DNA of 64,000 nucleotides, from assembly GCA_045648945.1 (NCBI GenBank), contig JAZROX010000045.1:26362-90361 (forward strand). The letters are read 5' to 3'. This document shows, one piece after another, positions 20,475 through 61,926 of this stretch (the first letter of the stretch is position 1; every line of letters begins with the position of its first letter). Origin of the DNA: Candidatus Enterousia sp. GTDB taxonomy: Bacteria > Pseudomonadota > Alphaproteobacteria > Rs-D84. Below the pieces are notes generated by a model. The model had not been told where the DNA came from, made no database searches, and saw only the letters and a list, made by a program, of their open reading frames with translations. The position numbers were made by a program, and so were the translations under genes.

Positions 20475-20583
20475 TAGTGGCTAGTGGCCAGTGTTAGTGG
20501 TTAGTGGATATCTGGAATTATTTTGTAATAACGGAGAAATTCCAGAAATTACTAACCACTATCCACTAACACTAACCACTAAT
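20475..20583. repeat. Long imperfect inverted repeat built from TAGTGG/CCACTA hexamer arrays (5+5 copies) around a central tctggaatt...aattccaga
   Basis: Left arm tagtggctagtggccagtgttagtggttagtgg. Right arm ccactatccactaacactaaccact. Lies between parC and the small-protein operon. Confidence 0.6.
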
Positions 20584-28469: not shown

Positions 28470-28736
28470 GTCGCCGCAACGCACCGTATTTACGCGAAAA
28501 ATCATAAATGGTCAATATATAGATGTAGATTTATAATTTTTTATCTATATATTGTATTTTTCGTTTTTTGCGAATCGGTTTTCATCAAATTTTTTCAAAA
28601 TTATTGACACAAAACGTGTTTTGGTGCCCGATTCGGGATGTGACGGGCGTCCTGAACACCGCGGATAACCGGCATTTTTAAAAGTCCAGTAAAAAAATAA
28701 AAAAAATTTCATTTTCTTGGTTGTGAAAAAACTATA

Positions 28737-31095: not shown

Positions 31096-31797
31096 ATGAA
31101 CACGATTCAGATTGGTGGATTGGTATCATTCACAACGATTGATTATCCGGGCAAATTGGCGTGTGTGCTGTTTTTGGTTGGTTGTCCAATTCATTGTGTA
31201 TATTGTTCAAATCCCCATCTGATACCCGTGGGCGCCGGCGAATACGATCCCGAAAAGGTCTTTGATTGGTTAAAATCGCGTGTTGGGCGGTTAGAGGCAG
31301 TTGTCTTTTCGGGGGGCGAGGCATTAATGCAAGGCCCGGCTTTATTGGATTATATGCGCCGCGTGCGGGAATTGGGTTTTTCCATTGGTCTGCACACCAA
31401 TGGATTTTATCCGGAAAACCTGGCCGCGGCGTCGTCTTTGATCGATTGGGTTGGGATTGATTACAAGGCAACCAAGACAAATTATGAAAAATTGACGGGC
31501 GTAAATATTGCATACGACCGTTTAATTAAAAGTTTGGATACGTGGGCCGCAACCGGCAAACCGGCCGAGGTCCGCACGACATGCGATCCGCGCTTTGTGA
31601 CGCCGGATGATCTAAGAAAAATTGCGCATGATGTTGCGTCGCGTGGTTTTAAAAACTTTGCGGTGCAAAAATATATTCCGCACTTTGAAGACGACGCACA
31701 CGCGACAACGCCCGCAATGCGCAACGCATTTTTTAATGATAACGCGTTGCGCGATGAAATAAATTCCCTGTTTGAAACCGTAACCTGGCGGGAATAA
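31096..31797 (+). CDS. nrdG: Anaerobic RNR activating protein (radical SAM)
   Basis: CPIHCVYC radical-SAM CX3CX2C cluster. 233 aa. Confidence 0.8.
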   Translation: MNTIQIGGLVSFTTIDYPGKLACVLFLVGCPIHCVYCSNPHLIPVGAGEYDPEKVFDWLKSRVGRLEAVVFSGGEALMQGPALLDYMRRVRELGFSIGLHTNGFYPENLAAASSLIDWVGIDYKATKTNYEKLTGVNIAYDRLIKSLDTWAATGKPAEVRTTCDPRFVTPDDLRKIAHDVASRGFKNFAVQKYIPHFEDDAHATTPAMRNAFFNDNALRDEINSLFETVTWRE

Positions 31798-31906
31798 TCC
31801 CCTTCGCTGGCGAAGGGGACAGGCCACCAACGGTGGCGGGGTAGTGGCGTTGAAAAAAATTACGCAGCGAAATAAATTCCTTGTTTGAACCCGTTACCTG
31901 ACAGGA

Positions 31907-32866
31907 TTAATCATTCGGCATATATACCGGCGCATTTCCCATTGTAAAGAATCGATTTGCAACCGTATCGTACATGCCAATTGCATTATCATGCCGCGCC
32001 GGTACATAGTTATGAATCATAACATCGTTTTCATAAACAGTTATATACGCAATATCACCATCAAAAATAGAATGATTGGCATATTGTGTTGAAAAATCGC
32101 CTATAAACCATACGTATGCACTACTTGACAGCGTTCTGGTACCTGTATATTCAATTCCATTTATGGTTCCGTACATATTATCACGTGTTTTGGTGCGGTC
32201 CAATACATCTTCCATTGTGTACCATACTCCTGTAGTTATCGGAATAAGTTTCGATATATTGCCGCCCGCCGGATAATTCGGTACGGTTATTATATGTGGT
32301 GCCCAATAACCGTCGGCGGACACACCAAAAAACATGCCATTATCTGCACCAAAAATCGAGTTATATTTTGTGGTGGACAGGCTGTTAAACCGAAACTTTG
32401 CTTTGACTTTATATGTTTGCAGTGTTGGATACCAACCGTAATCTACTATCGCGTCTTTGGTTGATATGTGTGACAATGCCGTATATCCCGCGGGCATGTT
32501 TTGTTCCACAACACTGTTGATAGACACCAACCAACAATCCGTCGGGTCATTTGGGTTGTATTTTATACACGTGAATTCTGCGTCAATTGCATCCTGAACC
32601 CCGCTGTTAAAGTCACCGGCGGTGACCAAGGCGTCCGTTTGTTCGGCGTATTCGCCGGTCGAATCGTAAATATTTTTTGTGCCGACCGTGCCCGCGGTGC
32701 CGGTGTTGGTCAAAACCTGGGCTACGCCGTCATTCGCCGGAATTGCGTCTTGCTTTTGTGCGACCGCGGTGTCAACGAATGCCTTGGACGTCGCAACATT
32801 TTCGCCCGCCGCAAACACGTCACCAGCCATAAACCCACAAACCAAAAACGTTAAAATTTTTTTCAT
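31907..32866 (-). CDS. Secreted paralog-family protein A (conserved ~100-aa N-module plus beta-rich C-terminal domain)
   Basis: Signal peptide MKKILTFLVCGFMAGDVFA. N-module GENVATSKAFVD...KQDAIPA...VLTNTGTAGTVGTKNIYDS...CIKYNPNDPTDCWL is shared with the ORFs at 54289, 60209 and 60935. Confidence 0.6.
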   Translation of the reverse strand: MKKILTFLVCGFMAGDVFAAGENVATSKAFVDTAVAQKQDAIPANDGVAQVLTNTGTAGTVGTKNIYDSTGEYAEQTDALVTAGDFNSGVQDAIDAEFTCIKYNPNDPTDCWLVSINSVVEQNMPAGYTALSHISTKDAIVDYGWYPTLQTYKVKAKFRFNSLSTTKYNSIFGADNGMFFGVSADGYWAPHIITVPNYPAGGNISKLIPITTGVWYTMEDVLDRTKTRDNMYGTINGIEYTGTRTLSSSAYVWFIGDFSTQYANHSIFDGDIAYITVYENDVMIHNYVPARHDNAIGMYDTVANRFFTMGNAPVYMPND

Positions 32867-33201
32867 AATTTGCTTCCTTTGATTGAACAAAAATAACCGC
32901 CAAGAATCCTGACGGTCGGGGTGTTAGCAAATCACTCATGTTATTGATTCTGATGACCTTTACATATACGTCACCAGCACCCCGACATACGGGGGACTTT
33001 AATATTGCGGTGCAAAAACACGAAATTCGCAATGGATTACGATGCTTTGCACCGAACATGAGCGGGTCTGCTACGACCCCGAACACAGATTTCCATCTGG
33101 TTCAAGCGCATTGTATTAGAAAAAAATTTTTATGGCAAGTGCAAATTAGATTTTTATTTGCGTTTTGAAAAAAAATACTATATGATGGTGCCACGGTTCC
33201 A

Positions 33202-33295
33202 GGATGGTTGGCAGAGCGGTTGAATGCATCCGACTTGAAATCGGACAAGGTATGAAATAAGACCTTCGGGGGTTCAAATCCCTCACCATCCGCCA
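33202..33295 (+). tRNA. tRNA-Ser (anticodon UGA) with long variable arm
   Basis: Acceptor GGATGGT/ACCATCC, anticodon stem CCGA/TCGG with loop CTTGAAA, long extra arm, T-loop GGTTCAAATCC, discriminator G and encoded CCA. Confidence 0.85.
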
Positions 33296-33455
33296 GTAAA
33301 ATCGGGCATCCCGTGGTAATTCCACGGGATGTTCTTTTTCGCCCCGTTTCCGGCAGTTTTTATACACGACATTACCAGTATATATCATTGTTTTTACCAA
33401 CTATGCCATATTTTACCATATTTATATACCTTACCCAAAAACGCGATGCCACTTT
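33290..33455. repeat. Direct repeat copy 1: tRNA-Ser 3' end (last 6 nt), its terminator hairpin and ~130 bp downstream
   Basis: ccgccagtaaaatcgggcatcccgtggtaattccacgggatgttcttttt...attaccagtatatatcat recurs at 38922-39090 with ~90% identity over the first 100 bp, degenerating beyond. The terminator hairpin is at 33308-33339. Confidence 0.75.
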
Positions 33456-33570
33456 TGAGTGCTTTTTCTATTAAAACCAAACAAAAAAACAGTTTCTTGT
33501 TATGAAATTAGTTGACAAAAGTTTTTGATGTGTTATTTTATCGGTGATATAAATTCAAGGCGTTTATATT

Positions 33571-34692
33571 ATGTTGATTGATTATAAAAATTATGTTAGC
33601 TCTTTAATTCGTTTTTTTGCACAAAAAAAATGGGAATATTCCTTTTTAAATGGAGATGTTATTTTTATAAAAAACTATACTGATACTGTCACTAGAAAAA
33701 TTAAACCTGAATATTTATTGAACGACTCGCTGTTTTATTCAAAAGTTGTTGAAAGCTTTTCTGCTCTGAATATACCCGTCAAAATAATAAATTCAATAGA
33801 AAATAAAAATTCTGATACAGATTTTATAATTGCTGGATTACAATTAGCTAATAACTCTTTAAAGAAAGATATCGTGAATCACGAATCTTTTTACTCATTG
33901 CAACCAGTTGTGCGTTTAACAAAAACCTCCATGGGAGGACAAAACAATAATATGCTAACATCGTTTATAAACTTATGTTCGGTTGATATAAACACTTCCT
34001 TAGATGAATATATGCAACGTGTGGATCAATGGATTTCTGTTTTTTCGAACCTTTCTTTACATACAAGTGGCTTTAAATTGATAACCAAAAAAATCCAAAA
34101 TAATAGGTTTTATGATGGGGTACCTTTTTATAATGGATTAAAGTTAAAATTCGTGTATCAAAACGTTGATATAGCCGTTGCTAATTTGTTTACCGTTAAT
34201 TGTAAACAAGGTTCAATTCTGGTTTCTGATTTCGGTTCTAGCTATGAACGTGTGTTAGGATGTATCAATGGGAATGATAACTTTTTTAAACCCATATATC
34301 CTAGTTTTCAGGTTTTATATGGCAACTATGTTATAAACGATAGGTTGCGAACGGCAGTTCTGATGTGTATGTCAGGTATAACTCCTAGTGCACATGGCAA
34401 TGGACAAAAATTAAGGAATATAATAAAAGAGGCTACAACAGTACCAGAAATTAGTAGACTAAAAGAAGTCATAACTTATTATTATATGTATTATTCAAAG
34501 TTTATAAATTCTAAAATAGAGTTGCCGTATGTATCCAGTATGATAGAAAAAGAGATTGAACAACAGCAGAAAAAGATTATTTCTGGTAAATATGATAAAA
34601 AAAATGTTACTAAATCAATAGATAATGTTTGTAGCGAAATCATTTTGAAGCAAGTCTTGCAAAGACAATCTATGTTAACCAAATTTAAATAA
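33571..34692 (+). CDS. Hypothetical protein (AT-rich island gene 1)
   Basis: 373-aa ORF with island-type low-GC codon usage. No confident motif. Confidence 0.45.
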   Translation: MLIDYKNYVSSLIRFFAQKKWEYSFLNGDVIFIKNYTDTVTRKIKPEYLLNDSLFYSKVVESFSALNIPVKIINSIENKNSDTDFIIAGLQLANNSLKKDIVNHESFYSLQPVVRLTKTSMGGQNNNMLTSFINLCSVDINTSLDEYMQRVDQWISVFSNLSLHTSGFKLITKKIQNNRFYDGVPFYNGLKLKFVYQNVDIAVANLFTVNCKQGSILVSDFGSSYERVLGCINGNDNFFKPIYPSFQVLYGNYVINDRLRTAVLMCMSGITPSAHGNGQKLRNIIKEATTVPEISRLKEVITYYYMYYSKFINSKIELPYVSSMIEKEIEQQQKKIISGKYDKKNVTKSIDNVCSEIILKQVLQRQSMLTKFK

Positions 34693-34706
34693 TAAAAAGT
34701 TACATT

Positions 34707-36827
34707 ATGAATGTATTTGAGACCCCACAATTTTTTCGAGAAGAAATATTAAAACTTTCAAACTTAGTTAATCGTGAAGAAGATAAATATACTGGCAAGT
34801 CCTTAATCTGTGTTTTTTTTACATCCTATTGCGGTGTTGGTTGTCCTTTTTGCTTTTTTTCCAGCCCTTCTCCAATACATGGAGAAAATGTAGAAAATAA
34901 GTTTAATGCTGATGGAGTTGATAAATTTATAGAATTCGCTAACAGTGCGAATGTAGGATATCTGCAAATATCTGGTGGTGGTGAACCATTTTTAGAAAAA
35001 GAGGCTATTATAAAAAGTATAGAACATATCAATGCGGATAGAATAATTTTAGTAACCAGCGGCATATGGGCCTGTAATATTGAGAATGCTGAAAAATACC
35101 TATTAGATTTGAAAAATGCTTTAAGTCGTAGAACCAACAAAACAAGACTATCTATTAGATTAAGTGTCAGCAAAGATCATAATATTAAATTGAAAAATCG
35201 TCCTCTTTATAACTTATTACAATTATTTGAAAAAAAATATAAATATGACGAGGATTTCACATTACAGCTAAAGACCTTTGATAACGATGATACTTTGACA
35301 ACTTATCTGGACAAATTTAATCCTGGGTGCAAAATAGAATACATTGGTAAAAATTGTTCTGATGATGAAAATCATATCAAAGTTATGCCACAAAAATTCA
35401 GAGTAATTTTTGATTCTGGTTATTCAGTAATAATCGGTCAATCTAGAATTTTTAATTCCAATCTTAGACCAAATATGAATATTCCAAATTCTATTGCAAA
35501 TACAATTAATGTATACGATCAGGATACCTCACAAAGCCAGTCTGATTTTCCATCTCTAGTTTTTAATTCAAACGGAAAACCAGGAATAGATTGGATTATT
35601 GAGTACAATGGAAATGTTTGTGCATGGCAAAACCGTGTTCAAGACAATTTATTAAACATATATGAAGACAAGTATGATTATGTTGTGAATAAAACATTGT
35701 CAGATCCTTTGACTTTGTCTTTTATAGAAAAGGGCGCAAAATATAGAGAAAAAATCATACAAGAAGTTGCCCCGCACACCGTAAAATTGGTAAAGGCTGT
35801 TAGTATACGTGATTATGCTGGAACATTATTGTTTGAAGATGAAAAGACCAGACTATATTACACATTACGCGTTTTGCAAGATTACATGAAAGAAGGGAGA
35901 ATAAATCAAGAAATATTTAGGCAACTGCCTTCAGAGATTCGATCGATACTGCAATTAACACAACAAGATTTAGTCGCATTGTATAAAAAATCTAATTATT
36001 CAATATTATCACAAGAACTAAGCAAGAATCATAACGCACAAACTTTTGGGGATTTTTTAGAGTTGGTCAAACTAGGACACTATAAACTCAATGCGTATGA
36101 TATACAAAAAGCTATCAAATATTACAATTCCATAAGTGGTTGCCAGATAAGTAGTATAGACGAGATACCTCATTTGACGGGAATTGATGTCGAGAGACGC
36201 TTTACAAAAAGAGTAATGACAATGAAAAAATTAGGACAAAATACAACAGGTTTGAAACATATATACATATACCGTCACGGAGAAACTTTTTGGAATACAG
36301 AAGGTATTGTTAAAGGTCAAATGGATGATCTAAACGTAAGTTTTACTGATAAAGGGTTAGAACAAATAAATACAATTGCGCAAGATATGAAGTTTAATCA
36401 AATTGAAGAAATATATGCATCTGATTTGGCAAGAACTAAAAATACCGCTCTGTTAGCTAATACAGATTTACAGCTTCCATTATCTTTTCATTCTGAATTA
36501 CGCGCATTGAATATGGGAAAATATCAAGGAAAACCATTCAAAGATTTTATTAGTGATCCTGCTGTACAAACAGCTTTCATAAACCACGATATTTGCATTC
36601 CTGATGGTGAGAGCATTAATCAGTTAAATACTAGACTTTTTACATTTTTAAACAAAATTGTATCGCAAACCACAGCTAAAAATATCGCAATAATTATGCA
36701 TAGTGCAGCTATAAGCAACTTAAAAGCCTATATTACAAAAGAAAAATATGAAGATATAGAACGATGTGAAATTTTATATGCAAATAAAAAATTTACAGTA
36801 ATAAAAACTAGACAAAAGACGTATTAA
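34707..36827 (+). CDS. Radical SAM domain protein fused to a C-terminal histidine-phosphatase (PGM-branch) domain
   Basis: N-terminal CGVGCPFC (CX3CX2C) and GGGEPFL SAM-binding motif. C-terminal IYRHGETFWN (RHG catalytic motif) and IIMHSAA second His. 706 aa. Confidence 0.7.
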   Translation: MNVFETPQFFREEILKLSNLVNREEDKYTGKSLICVFFTSYCGVGCPFCFFSSPSPIHGENVENKFNADGVDKFIEFANSANVGYLQISGGGEPFLEKEAIIKSIEHINADRIILVTSGIWACNIENAEKYLLDLKNALSRRTNKTRLSIRLSVSKDHNIKLKNRPLYNLLQLFEKKYKYDEDFTLQLKTFDNDDTLTTYLDKFNPGCKIEYIGKNCSDDENHIKVMPQKFRVIFDSGYSVIIGQSRIFNSNLRPNMNIPNSIANTINVYDQDTSQSQSDFPSLVFNSNGKPGIDWIIEYNGNVCAWQNRVQDNLLNIYEDKYDYVVNKTLSDPLTLSFIEKGAKYREKIIQEVAPHTVKLVKAVSIRDYAGTLLFEDEKTRLYYTLRVLQDYMKEGRINQEIFRQLPSEIRSILQLTQQDLVALYKKSNYSILSQELSKNHNAQTFGDFLELVKLGHYKLNAYDIQKAIKYYNSISGCQISSIDEIPHLTGIDVERRFTKRVMTMKKLGQNTTGLKHIYIYRHGETFWNTEGIVKGQMDDLNVSFTDKGLEQINTIAQDMKFNQIEEIYASDLARTKNTALLANTDLQLPLSFHSELRALNMGKYQGKPFKDFISDPAVQTAFINHDICIPDGESINQLNTRLFTFLNKIVSQTTAKNIAIIMHSAAISNLKAYITKEKYEDIERCEILYANKKFTVIKTRQKTY

Positions 36828-36869
36828 ATGAGTATTATGTAGCTTGGTTAAGTAATAATCTAAGATAAG

Positions 36870-37586
36870 GTGTGTCCGATGAATGTATTATTGAACGGTG
36901 GTGGTTGCGCCGAAAAAACAAAAGAAATTTATACTTTTTTAAATAAAATCATAAACAATTCAAAACCTATATTGTGTATTCCCCTTGCCCGGGATAGAGA
37001 TGATAGTGGATATGAAAATTCTAAGGTTTGGTTGCAGAATGAATTAAATGACATTGATTATTCTGGTTTGGTTATGGCAGATTCATCCGATTATATATCA
37101 AAGATGAATTTAAATGATTTTGGATTGATTTACATTAGTGGGGGGAATACGTACAAATTATTGAAAGAATTAAAGGATACAGAAGCATTTAATAAAATAA
37201 GAGCCTATTTTCTTTCTGGTGGTATTATTTATGGATCTAGTGCCGGGGCGGCAATATTTGGCGCTTCTTTACGTTCCATAGCATATGCCGATAAAAACGA
37301 TGTTAAATTGCAAAATATTCAAGGATATGATTTGTTTTCCGGAATATCAATAGCCGCACACTATACTAATAAAAATGAAGAAAAAACTCAAATTGCAACA
37401 GAATACCTGATACAATTATCAAAAACTGAACCAGTTGTAGCTTTACCAGAAGAAGATACTATATATATACACGATGGTCTTGTTACCGTGTTTGGTTCTC
37501 GCGATTATTACATATTCAGGAATGGTGTTCGAAAAGCATTTACTACTGGCCAAACCATGCCAAAAGAAGTATTTTTGAATCTGTAA
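36870..37586 (+). CDS. Peptidase S51 family (dipeptidase E / cyanophycinase-like)
   Basis: ISGGNTYKL and GSSAGAAIFG nucleophile-Ser motifs typical of S51. 238 aa. Confidence 0.6.
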   Translation: MCPMNVLLNGGGCAEKTKEIYTFLNKIINNSKPILCIPLARDRDDSGYENSKVWLQNELNDIDYSGLVMADSSDYISKMNLNDFGLIYISGGNTYKLLKELKDTEAFNKIRAYFLSGGIIYGSSAGAAIFGASLRSIAYADKNDVKLQNIQGYDLFSGISIAAHYTNKNEEKTQIATEYLIQLSKTEPVVALPEEDTIYIHDGLVTVFGSRDYYIFRNGVRKAFTTGQTMPKEVFLNL

Positions 37587-37640
37587 ACATTACTGAATTG
37601 TTAAAATCAATTGATGTTGACAAATGTAAATTGCAGTTCT

Positions 37641-38525
37641 CTATTTTGTTGCCATTTTTTGGTTGCAGACTAATTGTCCGCATGCGCCTGCAATATCTTG
37701 TCCTTTGCTAATTCTAATAATTGTTTGTACACCTACGCTTTCCAATCTTTGTTTAAATATATTTGCTTTATCCTCTTTTGCACGAGACATTGAGATTGTT
37801 TGCGTTTCGTTATACAATAATATTTGAACTTTAAAATATTTAGGGTCAATCAATTTTATTAGGTCTGCTAAATGCTTTTCAGAATCGTTCACATTGTTTA
37901 TTAACATATAACTTAATGTCACTCTTTTATTGGTCTGAATTACATATTCTTTGCAAGCCCCCAACAGTGTGCTTATATCATATTTTTTATTAACAGGCAT
38001 CAGTTGTGAACGTTGGTTGTCGTAAGGAGAATGCAACGAAACAAAAAATTTGATGTTTTTTAATTCATTTTGTAGCGTGGCAAGCTCTGCTATTTTGTCT
38101 ACTATACCTACCGATGATATAGGAATTGTTTCCAAATTTGGGTCGTATTGGCTTATTCGTTTGCAAAAATGTTTCAAATTGATAAAATTATCTAGCGGTT
38201 CCCCCATTCCCATTACCACGGCACTATATTTAATATTTTCTGATTCTATATTTCTGTATATTAAATCAGACCTGATAAGTCTGATTTCATCCAGCATTTC
38301 ATTATGAGATAAGTTAGCATAAAATCCATTATGACCAGTTGCACAAAACAAGCAGTTCATTTTACAACCCGCTTGTGAAGATATACAAATATGGTATCTA
38401 TCGTACGGGATCCCATTTCTTTGGTTTATTCTGTAGTAAACAGCCTCGCACAAATTACCGAAATTTGTGCGAAATATGTACTTTATGCTTCCGTCTTGAG
38501 ATCTCAAAGAATTCAGAATTTTCAT
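37641..38525 (-). CDS. RlmN/Cfr-family radical SAM RNA methyltransferase homolog lacking the N-terminal accessory domain
   Basis: HICISSQAGCKMNCLFCATG, MGMGEPLDNF and C-terminal DIAGACGQL retain both mechanistic Cys of RlmN/Cfr. Only 294 aa (about 70 residues shorter at the N-terminus). Confidence 0.65.
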   Translation of the reverse strand: MKILNSLRSQDGSIKYIFRTNFGNLCEAVYYRINQRNGIPYDRYHICISSQAGCKMNCLFCATGHNGFYANLSHNEMLDEIRLIRSDLIYRNIESENIKYSAVVMGMGEPLDNFINLKHFCKRISQYDPNLETIPISSVGIVDKIAELATLQNELKNIKFFVSLHSPYDNQRSQLMPVNKKYDISTLLGACKEYVIQTNKRVTLSYMLINNVNDSEKHLADLIKLIDPKYFKVQILLYNETQTISMSRAKEDKANIFKQRLESVGVQTIIRISKGQDIAGACGQLVCNQKMATK

Positions 38526-38921
38526 ATAACAGACCCTTGCTAATTACATATTAGAATAAAAAAAACAAGTTTCAACCGGTTTTATATAAAAAACACAACA
38601 TTCAGCTTGTTATTAGAACACAGATATCCTGGTAATATACTTTGTATCAAATGTGGTGATTCTTGCATATAGACAAATTTTCCCAAATTTCGAACATCTT
38701 TTGAACCATAGGTAATATCTATTTGATATTACTTGATTGTTTGTAAAGACATTACTATCAAAAAGGTGCGTTTTATTTATCACTTTTTTTAACAATGTAA
38801 TCGGTGCTTTTCGCATAATTTTGGCTTTTGTGCACTACAAATATTGTTGGCTGTACTTGTTATAAAATCTATTTTTTCGTTCACACGGGCAAAACTTCCT
38901 GTTTTTCGAATACCTTTTGAG

Positions 38922-39090
38922 CCGCCAGTAAAATCGGGCATCCCGTGGTAATCCCACGGGATGTTCTTTTTTGCCCGATTTTCCGCAGTTTTTGGCTATG
39001 ATATTACCAGTGTATATCATCATCCGCGCCCAAACCGCCAAAATTCACCACAACCATATACCTTGCCCAATTTCCCGATGCCAGTTTTCC
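38922..39090. repeat. Direct repeat copy 2 of the tRNA-Ser 3'-end/downstream segment
   Basis: See 33290-33455. Includes a second copy of the terminator hairpin catcccgtggtaatcccacgggatg and its T-tract. Confidence 0.75.
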
Positions 39091-54091: not shown

Positions 54092-54288
54092 ATTTACCTT
54101 CCTTTTGTTTACGTTCGCCGTATCATAGCACCATTTTTTTAAAAATCCAATGCGAATTTTTACATTGGGTCGGTCCGAACGTAATGCGTCATCCTGGCAC
54201 AGGCCGGGACTAGATGCCGCGGGGTGGGGGGGTGTATGGAATTATTCTTCAAACATGGCACAAACAAAATGGGCCGCCGCAACGTTTT

Positions 54289-55140
54289 TTAATTTACACT
54301 TGGTATAAAATTATTCGGATTATAATAAGGAAAGAAAGTTGTATATGTGGTCACGCCGTCTTCGACAAACATTGGCGCAAAACTAAATCCACTCATATCA
54401 GTATTTGCATCAATGTAAATACGGACATATTTGACAATATAACCCGTTTGGTTGACATAAGTAAAAGTTTGTCGGTTTTCCTTTGTAAAACGCCAACAAT
54501 CAATAAAACCTTTATTTGGGGTAAGCCATGCGAGCGAAACCGTATTCCCGAACCCTCGGCCGCAATTGCCGTCACTAAACCTTTTGTTGTTCCACAAATA
54601 CATCCCGCCCCTACCGCCATAATACACAGATGTTGGAAACTGGTAATCTCTGGTCAATTCAAATTCAAAATAAGTATCTGCGGTGGCAACACCATTGAAC
54701 GAATACATCCCGTTATTTACCGTAACCGTGACACCATTAAGTGTTTTAGTTTGGTTTTCTGGTGCGGGCAGTCGATTTGGACTCGCACTGCGTATTTGTA
54801 CCAGCCAACAATCCGTCGAATCGTTTGGATTCCATGCAATACATTCAAATTCAGTGTCTATGGCGTTTTGCACGGCGGTGTTAAAGTCCCCGGCCGTCAC
54901 CAATGCGTCTGTTTGTGCGGAATACGATGCGTTCGAATCATAAATGTTTTTTGTGCCAACCGCACCGGGTGTTCCGGTGTTTGTCAGTACCTGGGGCGCG
55001 CCATTGTTTGCCGGAATTATGTTTTGTTTTTGTGCCACGCCCGCATCAACAAAGGCCTTGGATGTTGCGACATTTTCACCCGTCGCAAATGCCGCACCAC
55101 ACATTACCGAACAAACAAAAAATGTTAAAAGTTTTCTCAT
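54289..55140 (-). CDS. Secreted paralog-family protein B
   Basis: N-module ~80% identical to protein A (GENVATSKAFVDAGVAQKQNIIPANNGAPQVLTNTGTPGAVGTKNIYDS...CIAWNPNDSTDCWLV) with a divergent C-terminal domain. 283 aa. Confidence 0.6.
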   Translation of the reverse strand: MRKLLTFFVCSVMCGAAFATGENVATSKAFVDAGVAQKQNIIPANNGAPQVLTNTGTPGAVGTKNIYDSNASYSAQTDALVTAGDFNTAVQNAIDTEFECIAWNPNDSTDCWLVQIRSASPNRLPAPENQTKTLNGVTVTVNNGMYSFNGVATADTYFEFELTRDYQFPTSVYYGGRGGMYLWNNKRFSDGNCGRGFGNTVSLAWLTPNKGFIDCWRFTKENRQTFTYVNQTGYIVKYVRIYIDANTDMSGFSFAPMFVEDGVTTYTTFFPYYNPNNFIPSVN

Positions 55141-55469
55141 AATCCCGCCTCCTTGGTGATAATCAAAAAAACCACTGAAGCAACAGTGGTTGGAGGTTCA
55201 AGACAATTTATGTGCAAATTGTGTGCTTATTTTATCGGGAAGCCCGATATTATTCACAACCCTCCAACCCAACGGTTGGAGATTTTTACGTCATAAAGAC
55301 GGCACATAAACACGGGTCTTGACACCCCACCGATGGAACACCCATCGACGTATGAAATTTACCAAGATTTCAAATTTGTTGCAAGACTTATTTGCGCGTT
55401 CGTGAAATTAATTTTGGAATTTTTGCGCGGGACCTTGAATTTGCGGGTTTTGCCGGTTATAATTGCGTT

Positions 55470-59994: not shown

Positions 59995-60106
59995 ATTGCG
60001 ATATCGATTCGTTTTTCGAATCGGTTTTTTTTGCCGATTCGGTGGCGATTTTGGCCTGGTTGACAAATATTTTATTATGAAAGCGCGCTAAGTCATTGAT
60101 ATTTCG

Positions 60107-60125
60107 TTTTTTTTTTTTTTTTTTT
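60107..60125. repeat. Homopolymeric T19 tract (followed by gT7) about 85 bp upstream of paralog-family gene C
   Basis: Read directly in sequence: 19 consecutive T. Confidence 0.9.
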
Positions 60126-60208
60126 GTTTTTTTGCCTTTGACTCGCCGCCGCGATTTTTTCTAAACTTTTAATCAGGGAATGAATAAGCAACAAAGGAGA
60201 AAAATCCC

Positions 60209-60619
60209 ATGAAGAAATCCAAAAATATAATAATTTGTGGCGCAATTGCATCTGTGTGCACGGTTGGTGCATTTGCCGAAAACGAAAACATCGTGACGTC
60301 CAAGGGATATGTGGACAGTGCGGTCGGCACAAAACAAAATACAATACCTGCGGCAGAAACAAACAGCGCCACCCCGGGGACCAGTGTAGTTATGTACACC
60401 GGCACGGCGGGAACAATTGGCGAACGCGCTATATACGACAGTACTACATATACATCCAATGATGCAAATAAATTGGTGACGGCGGCATCGTTAAATGGAA
60501 CGGTAAATAACATACCGACAATAACAACATCTAAATTGACATGTTCGAACAGCCCTGATTGTACACTGTGGGATTTGTCTGACCAGACAGTATTGGGGCA
60601 ACAGCAACAAGGGAATTAA
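60209..60619 (+). CDS. Secreted paralog-family protein C (N-module only, 136 aa)
   Basis: Signal peptide plus ENENIVTSKGYVDSAVGTKQNTIPA...YTGTAGTIGERAIYDS...KLTCSNSPDCTLWDL. Terminates right after the shared module. Confidence 0.55.
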   Translation: MKKSKNIIICGAIASVCTVGAFAENENIVTSKGYVDSAVGTKQNTIPAAETNSATPGTSVVMYTGTAGTIGERAIYDSTTYTSNDANKLVTAASLNGTVNNIPTITTSKLTCSNSPDCTLWDLSDQTVLGQQQQGN

Positions 60620-60630
60620 AATGCTGTGCC

Positions 60631-60885
60631 GTCATCCTGAACTTGGTTCAGGATCCCGTCGATGCCGCCTGATACACGTCATCCCGCCGAAGGGCGGGAC
60701 CCAGTGCGAACGAAGTGAGCACTTGCGTCGCAGACAGTACATGTGTGTCACGCGCATTGCGCGTTCCACATTTCCTGCGGAGCAGTCAACCTTTGCCTAA
60801 GGCTTCGGTTGATGGGTACCGCCCTTCGGCGGTATGACGGGACCGCGACGGAAATGAAGAGATCCTGAAACAAGTTCAGGATGAC
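60631..60885. mobile_element. 255-bp palindromic MITE-like element with 25-bp terminal inverted repeats GTCATCCTGAACTTGGTTCAGGATC / GATCCTGAAACAAGTTCAGGATGAC
   Basis: Nested internal inverted repeats cccgccgaagggcggg / ccgcccttcggcgg. Related fragments occur at about 54190-54235 and 28600-28660. Confidence 0.6.
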
Positions 60886-60934
60886 GTGCAAAAAAGGATG
60901 ACGAAAAAACAATAAACAAAAAAAGGAGAAAGAT

Positions 60935-61864
60935 ATGAAACGAATATTAGCGGGAACGGTGTTGATGGTGATGGCATTACCGTGCTATGGCGCGGGTGAA
61001 AACATACCAACATCGCGTGCGTATGTTGATTCTGCATTAAGCCTGAAACAGGCGAAGTTCCCTGCGGCGAATTCTGGTTTGGGTTCGGGAACCAGTGTTT
61101 TAACATATACCGCGACCAGTGGTACAATTGGTGAACGTGCATTATATACGGACGCGTCCAGTTACGATGCATCGAATGATGCAGATAAATTGATAACTGC
61201 GTCGGCATTAAACGGTGCGGTGACATCATTACAGACAGATACAACAACGAAATTGGTATGTGCGAACCCGGGGACATGCGACCTGTGGAATATTGTTGAC
61301 CAAACGGCCTATGCCGGCGGCAGCAGTTCCGGCGGTGGAACGACGTTGGAACAATGCGTTTTTAGTGGTTTATCGGATTATATGCCTGCACAAGAATATT
61401 ATCGTGACAGCACGTGTTCAAAATTGCTAAACGGTAATTCTGTTGGAAATAGCATTTGCAGTGCAGATGTATTCAATTCATTGTCATACGGTGAATGGGC
61501 GGTTCAATTGGTGGACAAAGAAACAGAAAATACAACCGTTTATGTGCAAGGGACCAGTACTTGTAGTAGCGTAGAGCCGTCCGCCGTGAGTCAGTGGGTG
61601 CTATCGTTCGATCAGAGTCAGCTTCAGCAAGATTATGCATTAAATCTATCCAATGCTCCAACATCCAGTCTAGTAGGTTCGTATTGTCATTGTAAAATTA
61701 CAAATGTGATTGGTACGGGGTGTACCGCACCGTGGGTTTCTTATGATTATGAAGCGTATTACTCAGCAGTCGATTGTGCCGGCAACTGTGCAAATGATTG
61801 TGCGTATCAAGTCTATAACAAGATTAACAACGGCGAAAGTTTGTCCCCGTATCAATATGACTAG
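60935..61864 (+). CDS. Secreted paralog-family protein D (N-module plus Cys-rich C-terminal domain)
   Basis: GENIPTSRAYVDSALSLKQAKFPA...YTATSGTIGERALYTD...KLVCANPGTCDLWNI. The C-terminal 200 aa are unique, with 12 Cys. 309 aa. Confidence 0.6.
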   Translation: MKRILAGTVLMVMALPCYGAGENIPTSRAYVDSALSLKQAKFPAANSGLGSGTSVLTYTATSGTIGERALYTDASSYDASNDADKLITASALNGAVTSLQTDTTTKLVCANPGTCDLWNIVDQTAYAGGSSSGGGTTLEQCVFSGLSDYMPAQEYYRDSTCSKLLNGNSVGNSICSADVFNSLSYGEWAVQLVDKETENTTVYVQGTSTCSSVEPSAVSQWVLSFDQSQLQQDYALNLSNAPTSSLVGSYCHCKITNVIGTGCTAPWVSYDYEAYYSAVDCAGNCANDCAYQVYNKINNGESLSPYQYD

Positions 61865-61926
61865 GAATAAAGAATGTTTATAACAGTAATATTACAAATC
61901 TAAAAAATCGCCGTTTGGCGATTTTT

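Follow-up and report, generated by a model that had tools for sequence, protein, structure and literature searches.

A nested composite of CGTC-tagged REP units in the leader of a hypervariable secreted-protein gene of Candidatus Enterousia sp.

Introduction

Repetitive extragenic palindromes (REPs) with an unpaired CGTC (or TGTC) tag were described as a superfamily by Di Nocera, De Gregorio and Rocco (2013, BMC Genomics 14:522; PMC3733652), who reported them from five phyla. By their definition, each unit has a stem of 8–9 bp opening with A-T pairs, a loop of 4–5 nt and a short CCA-like tail; head-to-head dimers prevail, often as heterodimers, with spacers of 20–100 nt. The units sit near the 3' end of the upstream open reading frame (ORF) without an associated transposase, and REPs are mostly located near gene ends and thought to be transcribed (PMC3733652). 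The Neisseria repeat dRS3, which was equated with CGTC-1, and the Rickettsia repeats RPE-4 and RPE-6 were placed in the same superfamily. Here, we analysed a GC-rich palindromic element at positions 60631–60885 of a 64,000-nt stretch of DNA from Candidatus Enterousia sp. (assembly GCA_045648945.1, contig JAZROX010000045.1, positions 26,362–90,361 of the forward strand; hereafter, the window), which lies between two paralogous genes, C and D, of a variable secreted-protein family. The element is built from several CGTC-tagged REP units and belongs to this repeat class. It adds a new case to a known class and stands out in two unusual respects, namely its nested architecture and how tightly it is linked to the leaders of one gene family.

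The most similar arrangement described so far is the Neisserial intergenic mosaic element (NIME), in which inverted dRS3 repeats flank RS elements; NIME arrays were stated to be unknown outside Neisseria and were proposed to promote recombination and the exchange of adjacent genes (Bentley et al. 2007; PMC1797815). REP doublets forming hairpins (REPINs) are mobilised by REP-associated tyrosine transposases (RAYTs) (Bertels and Rainey 2011; PMC3116915). A 2025 survey reported low similarity of REPs across taxa.

In this lineage, the CGTC units are not scattered; they form a small mosaic, confined almost entirely to the leaders of one variable secreted-protein family, whose copies differ by reshuffling from locus to locus and show higher conservation than the neighbouring genes. 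CGTC REPs are widespread but, to our knowledge, have been assigned neither a mobilising enzyme nor a function. This provides an independent second case of the arrangement that has been proposed to accelerate the exchange of surface-antigen genes in Neisseria, as well as a tractable locus in which to seek the enzyme responsible and any effects on expression. If the module were only a leader hairpin copied together with its genes, it would represent an ordinary REP cluster.

Structure of the element and its class membership

The element consists of four units, each a small hairpin that follows an unpaired CGTC, with tags starting at 60630 and 60677 on the plus strand and at 60839 and 60886 on the minus strand. 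We assign it to the CGTC REP class because its unpaired, outward-facing CGTC tags match the published definition; its stems of 7–9 bp, loops of 3–5 nt and CCC or CTC tails agree with that definition in part. The units are arranged as two nested head-to-head dimers, each with its tags on the outside, the outer one of CGTC-2 type and the inner one CGTC-1-like, around a core of 111 nt. The outer stems read ATCCTGAA(C) with loops of 3–5 nt, the inner stems TCCCGCC or TACCGCC with the loop GAAG, and the tails of the four units are CCC, CCC(A), CCC(A) and CTC. In both outer units, the stem and loop agree with the published form (ATCCTGAA / TTCAGGAT, loop CTTGT).

The outer-left unit (60630–60657, plus strand) carries its tag at 60630–60633, a stem of ATCCTGAAC / GTTCAGGAT, the loop TTG and the tail CCC; besides this form with 9 bp and a 3-nt loop, it has an alternative fold with an 8-bp stem and a 5-nt loop. 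The inner-left unit (60677–60702, plus strand) has a 7-bp stem (TCCCGCC / GGCGGGA), the loop GAAG and the tail CCC(AG). Between the inner units lies the core (60703–60813, no strand assigned), at whose centre is the palindrome ACGCGCA-T-TGCGCGT, tagged by TGTC, at 60746–60767. The inner-right unit (60814–60839, minus strand) reads CGTCATACCGCCGAAGGGCGGTACCC, and an identical unit was present in seven related loci (L171, L186, L202, L207, L210, L215 and L223; retrieved stretches are given L numbers throughout). The outer-right unit (60859–60886, minus strand) reads CGTCATCCTGAACTTGTTTCAGGATCTC, with an 8-bp stem and the loop CTTGT. The element has no coding capacity of its own.

The in-frame translations, the only level at which the REP families were compared (encoded peptides, not consensus nucleotide sequences), support the assignment of the units. 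The outer-left and outer-right units encode RHPELGSGS and RHPELVSGS, respectively, and the latter is one base from RHSELVSGS, the Sulfurovum CGTC-2 insert in the supplement of PMC3733652. The inner unit encodes VIPPKGGT, compared with VIPAKAGI in the CGTC-1 units of the same supplement. A full-text literature search with the repeat sequence and its peptide translations returned no relevant paper. Rfam was searched with the complete window (gathering thresholds) and with the element by itself (E ≤ 10); the only matches were one tRNA and two chance snoRNA-like ones, and there is no family for the element.

The first-pass annotation of this locus, made from the sequence, was largely right in its observations. 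It had described a palindrome with nested inverted repeats, and both features were found: nested GC hairpins lie at 60678–60699 and 60817–60838, and inverted arms with 80% complementarity extend to 74 nt (60630–60703 with 60813–60886). Its 25-bp terminal inverted repeats (TIRs) are likewise present (60631–60655 on the plus strand and 60861–60885 on the minus strand) but are not perfect, matching at 24 of 25 positions; the sole mismatch, G versus T, falls in the loop. None of 100 shuffles contained a match of that kind. The prediction that the whole element can fold into one long hairpin also held, with an RNA folding energy of −150.5 kcal/mol (shuffles: −90.9 ± 4.7 kcal/mol; z = −12.6) and a DNA folding energy of −90.1 kcal/mol (z = −14.2).

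An ordinary intrinsic terminator, or a GC-rich palindrome arisen by chance, might account for such a structure. The element begins 10 nt past the stop codon of paralog C, and a single match to the terminator consensus, on the minus strand, overlaps the outer-right unit. However, the terminator scan found none at the element on the plus strand, and GTGCAAAAAAGG, which follows the element, has no T-run; on the coding strand, no T-run follows the structure. Given the missing T-tract and the recurrence of the units and core in many loci and genomes, together with the two z-scores above, this explanation is scarcely credible. The element stands out as GC-rich in a window with a G+C content of ca. 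0.40.

Occurrence of the outer unit across genomes

The outer 25-mer was sought by exact match (GTCATCCTGAACTTGNTTCAGGATC, with one free position) in one genome per species, giving at least 142 matches in at least 120 stretches of DNA (L001–L120). A genome-wide search for the terminal repeat had been suggested with the original description; the present scan found the 25-mer exactly in at least 120 genomes from many phyla, and it is therefore not unique to this site. The hosts listed include Sphingomonadales, Bacteroidota, Treponema (Spirochaetota), Elusimicrobia (Elusimicrobiota), Campylobacterota, Melainabacteria, Dependentiae, Chloroflexota and many lineages of the candidate phyla radiation. 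Cultured isolates of Sphingomonas, Pedobacter, Salegentibacter, Treponema bryantii and Thalassotalea also carry it. In viral contigs, the 25-mer occurred in 28 stretches (L141–L168), some with 3–4 copies. The exact conservation across phyla and the presence in viral contigs indicate that the unit has spread as DNA.

Among the 142 matches listed, GTC is preceded by C or T in 131 (92%), and the tails are CTC in 50 and CCA in 33. Where a partner lies within 200 nt, the arrangement is head-to-head in 66 cases, tail-to-tail in 14 and tandem on either side in 9–11, with a median dimer length of 89 nt. The partner units in these matches often have different stems that are nevertheless perfectly paired, and such compensatory change fits recognition of a structure rather than of a duplex end.

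These results bear on the original view of the element as a miniature inverted-repeat transposable element (MITE), that is, an internally deleted insertion sequence whose 25-bp TIRs would be acted on in trans by a DDE transposase. The near-complete match between the TIRs, the length of ca. 255 bp without coding capacity and the variation in presence among relatives would all suit a MITE. Each TIR, however, is a self-complementary REP hairpin that also occurs alone, as well as in pairs, in diverse bacteria; it is part of a nested architecture, and its partner units differ in stem sequence with compensatory changes. The flanks show no target-site duplication: TGC is all that recurs on the two sides of the window copy, and none of the nine further copies described below has a flanking direct repeat (left ...agcgc, right gctct...). 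Furthermore, relatives differ by a whole cassette of 1.9 kb and not by the element alone, and no transposase domain or HUH-type gene was detected in the tested ORFs or in the motif scan of the loci specified below. A classical MITE is thus a very improbable explanation, and the MITE-like label was abandoned in favour of REP units.

Half-sites related to the outer unit were also observed. An extra half-site, CGTCATCCT (plus strand AGGATGACG), lies at 60895–60903 on the minus strand as a direct repeat, 17 nt beyond the outer-right unit. Tandem half-sites consisting of the tag and the 5' stem half (GTCATCCTGAAC, ca. 17–21 nt apart) precede full units in L071, L083, L096, L097, L116 and L117. The genomes bearing them are unrelated to each other, and the minimal form in the window (60878–60911) is AGGATGACG twice.

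The inner module and its gene family

The inner dimer and the core (60677–60840) constitute a repeated element of ca. 160 nt. Metagenome contigs retrieved with the N-domain of the secreted-protein family as the query provided 76 family loci, nine of which contained a full copy of this inner module (L171, L180, L186, L202, L207, L210, L215, L223 and L230). L171–L230 come from the metagenomes Ga0310697 and Ga0247609. All nine copies lie 20–120 nt 5' of the start codon of a family gene, and most come after a terminator-like hairpin upstream. The window module is 81%–84% identical to seven of the nine; L180 and L186 match less well. Strict units were counted in 63 related loci, with 27 in the 300-nt windows 5' of the start codon (18.9 kb) compared with one in the remaining 187.5 kb, a density ca. 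270-fold higher. At least one unit was present within 300 nt 5' of the start codon in 15 of the 63 loci. The module therefore occurs almost exclusively upstream of family genes. A small repeated palindrome associated with the paralog family had been proposed, and the nine copies and their enrichment bear this out; its supposed link to the 3' ends of the genes does not hold, as the consistent position is the 5' leader. The association with the family is thus real, with the 5' leaders rather than with the 3' ends. Two other searches for copies yielded nothing: a scan of metagenomes with a 24-mer of the core gave no match, and a protein search with a spurious 59-aa ORF spanning the element gave no candidate copies.

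The copies are more conserved than their surroundings. Core identity was 94%–99% among L171, L202, L207, L215, L223 and L230, and lower in L180, L186 and L210, whereas the flanks were less conserved than the cores (81%–96% upstream and 65%–89% in the downstream coding sequence). In addition, window positions 60712–60784 are 100% identical to positions 1–73 of L129. The matching stretch of L129 lies 5' of a homologue of paralog D with only 59% amino acid identity, at another locus beside a different neighbour gene, and the identical 73 nt are shared by genomes whose housekeeping genes are 10%–25% apart in DNA.

The copies also vary in presence, orientation and unit combination. The module is absent from the family locus L172 despite the same left flank, and the larger cassette of the window is missing from its closest relative (see below), in line with the presence/absence variation that the first-pass annotation had proposed to look for. 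Three unit variants (CCCGGC, ACCGCC and CCCGCG; units a, b and c) are freely combined at either end. Relative to the gene, the core is reversed in L215 and L186, and the core of L180 is a mosaic with its switch at the central palindrome. In these copies, the inverted repeat runs 9 nt into the flanks (ccagagcgc / gctctcggg).

Across ten copies, the hairpin formed by each unit was distinguished from the pairing of the two arms. In the unit hairpins, 99.5% of cells were paired, with six covarying pairs and a covariation score reached by none of 500 shuffles. Pairing between the left and right arms was 84.8%, below the shuffled mean, with no compensatory changes. Each unit's own hairpin is preserved by compensatory changes, and the conserved feature is therefore the small REP hairpin and not the long hairpin.

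The conservation of unit hairpins in a leader position raises the alternative that the element acts purely at the RNA level, as a leader or intercistronic structure fixed in the 5' region of the family and copied only with gene duplication, its hairpins setting mRNA stability or translation. Its probably transcribed location between C and D, where no promoter-like site precedes D, its placement elsewhere between an upstream terminator and the ribosome-binding site, the compensatory changes and the location of REPs in general (PMC3733652) are compatible with this. However, the module is present or absent among loci with the same flank (L172), occurs in both orientations and is conserved to a much higher degree than the coding sequence beside it, with the 73 nt at 100%, while the outer 25-mer is exact across phyla and in viral contigs. 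We therefore regard an exclusively RNA-level element as unlikely.

The two orientations could alternatively reflect an inverton, in which an invertase flips the core at the inverted REP units and switches the downstream family gene on or off, like the invertible promoters before surface genes of gut bacteria. In its favour, inverted repeats flank a core of ca. 110 nt directly 5' of secreted-protein genes, the core is better conserved than its flanks and occurs in both orientations within the same immediate flanks, ccagagcgc / gctctc (L215 and L186 versus L171, L202, L207, L223 and L230), and three contigs (L129, L174 and L210) end inside the element. Yet the core of the window, L202 and L215 contained no sigma-70-like promoter in either orientation, the window ORFs tested yielded no invertase domain, and the opposite orientations stem from different paralogous loci, with none at one locus. 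The repeats are also much longer than typical invertase sites, and the units have been swapped between ends. An inverton thus appears quite unlikely.

Possible roles in recombination and transcript processing

The class of the repeat, its recurrence and position, the differences among copies and the conservation of the unit hairpins are shown by the results above. As a whole, we consider reasonably probable a reading in which this nested CGTC REP composite, with its inner module in the leaders of one hypervariable secreted-protein family, also takes part in recombination and RNA-level processes. We infer a role in recombination or transcript processing; recombination, gene conversion and transcript stabilisation, the functions put forward originally, are all plausible. 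At the DNA level, the inverted hairpin units may act as sites of recombination or mobilisation, through some enzyme or through template switching between inverted repeats. The module would thereby be moved, flipped and reshuffled, and the exchange of adjacent variable genes could be helped, as proposed for NIME arrays.

At the RNA level, the element is probably transcribed together with C because no promoter is visible for D alone: C is preceded by a promoter-like site (60138–60167, downstream of a T20 tract), and a scan of the stretch from the element to the ATG of D found none. Its stable stem-loops might then shield the C message at its 3' end or serve as a site of double-strand cleavage, and the element could uncouple the expression of C and D. 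Comparable published cases are the REPs in the malEFG operon of Escherichia coli and the Correia elements of Neisseria, which are reportedly cut by RNase III.

Several observations weigh against this interpretation. In the inner units, the stem is only 7 bp long, the loop has 4 nt, and an A stays unpaired where the definition has an A-T closure. A crude regular-expression motif scan for an HUH-Y1 transposase gave no match in the window or in L001–L140, and a Pfam scan of 16 window ORFs (the paralogs, their neighbours and ten further ORFs, including those of the island next to a tRNA gene) detected no recombinase or transposase domain. Likewise, no mobilising enzyme was found for CGTC repeats in PMC3733652. 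No pair of contigs had the same flanks (both ≥ 98%) and opposite core orientations. The rest of the 64-kb window and ca. 110 kb of close relatives contained no other strict unit, and the window itself holds one cluster and one degenerate unit; for the source genome, this count covers 64 kb. The module could have multiplied through duplication or gene conversion of the conserved 5' region of the family and not by movement of its own, and the proposed RNA role is inferred only.

A more far-reaching idea is that, in gut-type Alphaproteobacteria, the CGTC units are the working sites of a dedicated recombination system, NIME-like but outside Neisseria, which flips, swaps and transfers the leader module together with its genes and drives diversification or phase variation of the family. 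We regard this extension as speculative and rather unlikely. As the copies are few, polymorphic and tied to one family, this lineage could expose the missing enzyme that acts on CGTC repeats.

Comparison with described repeat systems

The window element resembles the published CGTC REPs in its unpaired tag, short perfect stem, 4–5-nt loop and short C-rich tail, in its head-to-head dimers, with many heterodimers, and in the location of the units between same-direction genes near the 3' end of the upstream ORF, without a known dedicated transposase. It differs from them in that two dimers are nested around a conserved core, with spacers of 112 and 205 nt that exceed the usual 20–100 nt, and in the 7-bp inner stems, which lack the A-T closure. 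Its copies are few and lie almost solely in the leaders of one gene family, whereas published CGTC REPs are scattered after many genes. The exact 25-mer spans many more groups than the five phyla reported.

The closest analogue appears to be the NIME array. In both systems, GC-rich palindromes of 20–26 nt of the CGTC-1 class bracket repeat modules of 50–150 nt, forming mosaics beside variable cell-surface genes, and the arrays vary between strains. Inverted units around a module of 50–150 bp beside divergent surface-protein genes were found here as well, as seen in the 111-nt core, the enrichment upstream of family genes and the swapping of units. In contrast, the inner unit is (A)TCCC-N10-GGGA(C) and not the dRS3 form ATTCCC-N8-GGGAAT (ATTCCCNNNNNNNNGGGAAT), the clusters are short (2–5 units) instead of long arrays, and they belong to an alphaproteobacterium, with no sign of a phage or recombinase that targets dRS3.

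Like REPINs, the element is non-autonomous and has a larger hairpin built from two inverted REP units around a spacer, and singletons resemble decayed dimers. Its tag is CGTC and not GTAG, however, and the crude motif scan of the window and L001–L140 found no RAYT-like gene. REPINs are vertically inherited and lineage-specific, whereas the present 25-mer is identical across phyla.

Correia elements of Neisseria and enterobacterial repetitive intergenic consensus (ERIC) sequences are palindromes of 100–160 bp, often located 5' of genes, whose long-hairpin transcripts alter mRNA processing or expression. The TA target duplications and the TIR sequence proper to Correia elements are absent here. 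Correia elements were also described by Bentley et al. (2007; PMC1797815).

Genomic context of the paralogous genes

Paralog C (60209–60619, plus strand) encodes 136 aa comprising a signal peptide and the family N-domain only, and paralog D (60935–61864, plus strand) encodes 309 aa with the N-domain and a variable C-terminal part. The element ends 48 nt short of the start codon of D, and D itself ends at an ordinary intrinsic terminator without a repeat at its 3' end. Directly 5' of the promoter-like site of C lies a tract of ca. 20 T, a G and 7 T (60107–60133), which is possibly a slipped-strand phase-variation tract.

Homologues of PriA place the source among uncultured Alphaproteobacteria. 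C, the element and D form a strain-specific segment (59998–61921, no strand assigned), as defined by comparison with the closest relative, L121, in which PriA is 99% identical and the DNA flanks are 96.9% and 96.4% identical. In place of this segment, L121 has 530 bp between priA and a virB11-like gene, and the small gene that they contain is unrelated. The small gene (MSDYLQEV..., 122–158 aa) is conserved in relatives between priA and the virB11-like ATPase gene (L121, 3753–4282; L122, 12203–12656), and it has been entirely replaced by the C–REP–D cassette in the window. C-type and D-type genes form a two-gene cassette that is found at different loci in relatives. The gap between them is 315 nt in the window compared with 40–150 nt in relatives; in L137–L140, which represent one lineage, it contains a single unit, CGTCATTCCGACAAAAGTCGTGATGACG, and in L130–L134 it contains a long inverted repeat of the (TTAGTG)n type.

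The four paralogs of the window, A (31907–32890, minus strand), B (54289–55140, minus strand), C and D, belong to a large family of secreted proteins, which also includes L169–L244. They share a signal peptide and an N-domain of ca. 125 aa (GENxxTSKxYVDxA...KQ), and their C-terminal parts are highly variable. Family proteins are 30%–59% identical, compared with 89%–99% for PriA in close relatives, and searches of Pfam, PHROGs and PDB sequences gave no match. The family genes occupy strain-specific slots between conserved housekeeping genes.

Related fragments had also been reported beside paralogs A and B and near 28600–28660. The one at paralog B is a genuine CGTC unit, albeit degenerate and single (CGTCATCCTGGCACAGGCCGGGAC, 54187–54212, plus strand, 3' of paralog B), with a pattern expected 0.03 times per window. 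It lies 21 nt within the left edge of a segment (54166–55433) that carries paralog B and is absent from L122 and L125, where gap and miaA adjoin. GC-rich hairpins do exist 3' of paralog A (31800–31859, no strand assigned), where CCCCTTC..GAAGGGG and GGCCACC..GGTGGC are followed by GGGGTAG, but they constitute a different, two-hairpin module without a CGTC tag; the same architecture was found in the family-gene leaders of L171 and L207. The piece near 28650 (cgtcctgaacaccgcgg) shares only ca. 10 nt, forms no hairpin and has no match in any fetched locus, and the resemblance is therefore no better than chance.

On either side of the 60-nt module 3' of paralog A, the nrdG 3' end is present as a 53-nt direct repeat (81% identical; 31747–31912), whereas in the relative L122 nrdG and the family gene adjoin without it. 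This suggests that the paralog A cassette arrived with flanking sequence of the donor. Within 33202–39020, the 3' part of a tRNA-Ser gene (33273–33388) is repeated at 38905–39020 with 83% identity. The two copies bracket ca. 5.6 kb with a G+C content of 0.30–0.34, which looks like an integrated island; Pfam detected no integrase domain in the four ORFs inside this segment or in one ORF just beyond it. The same mosaics include a further type of repeat, arrays of short (ACTAACC)/(TTAGTG)-type units that frequently form long inverted pairs; these recur near family genes in several relatives, namely in the C–D gaps of L130–L134, in L129 (1290–1315) and in L177, and once in the window (20551–20582).

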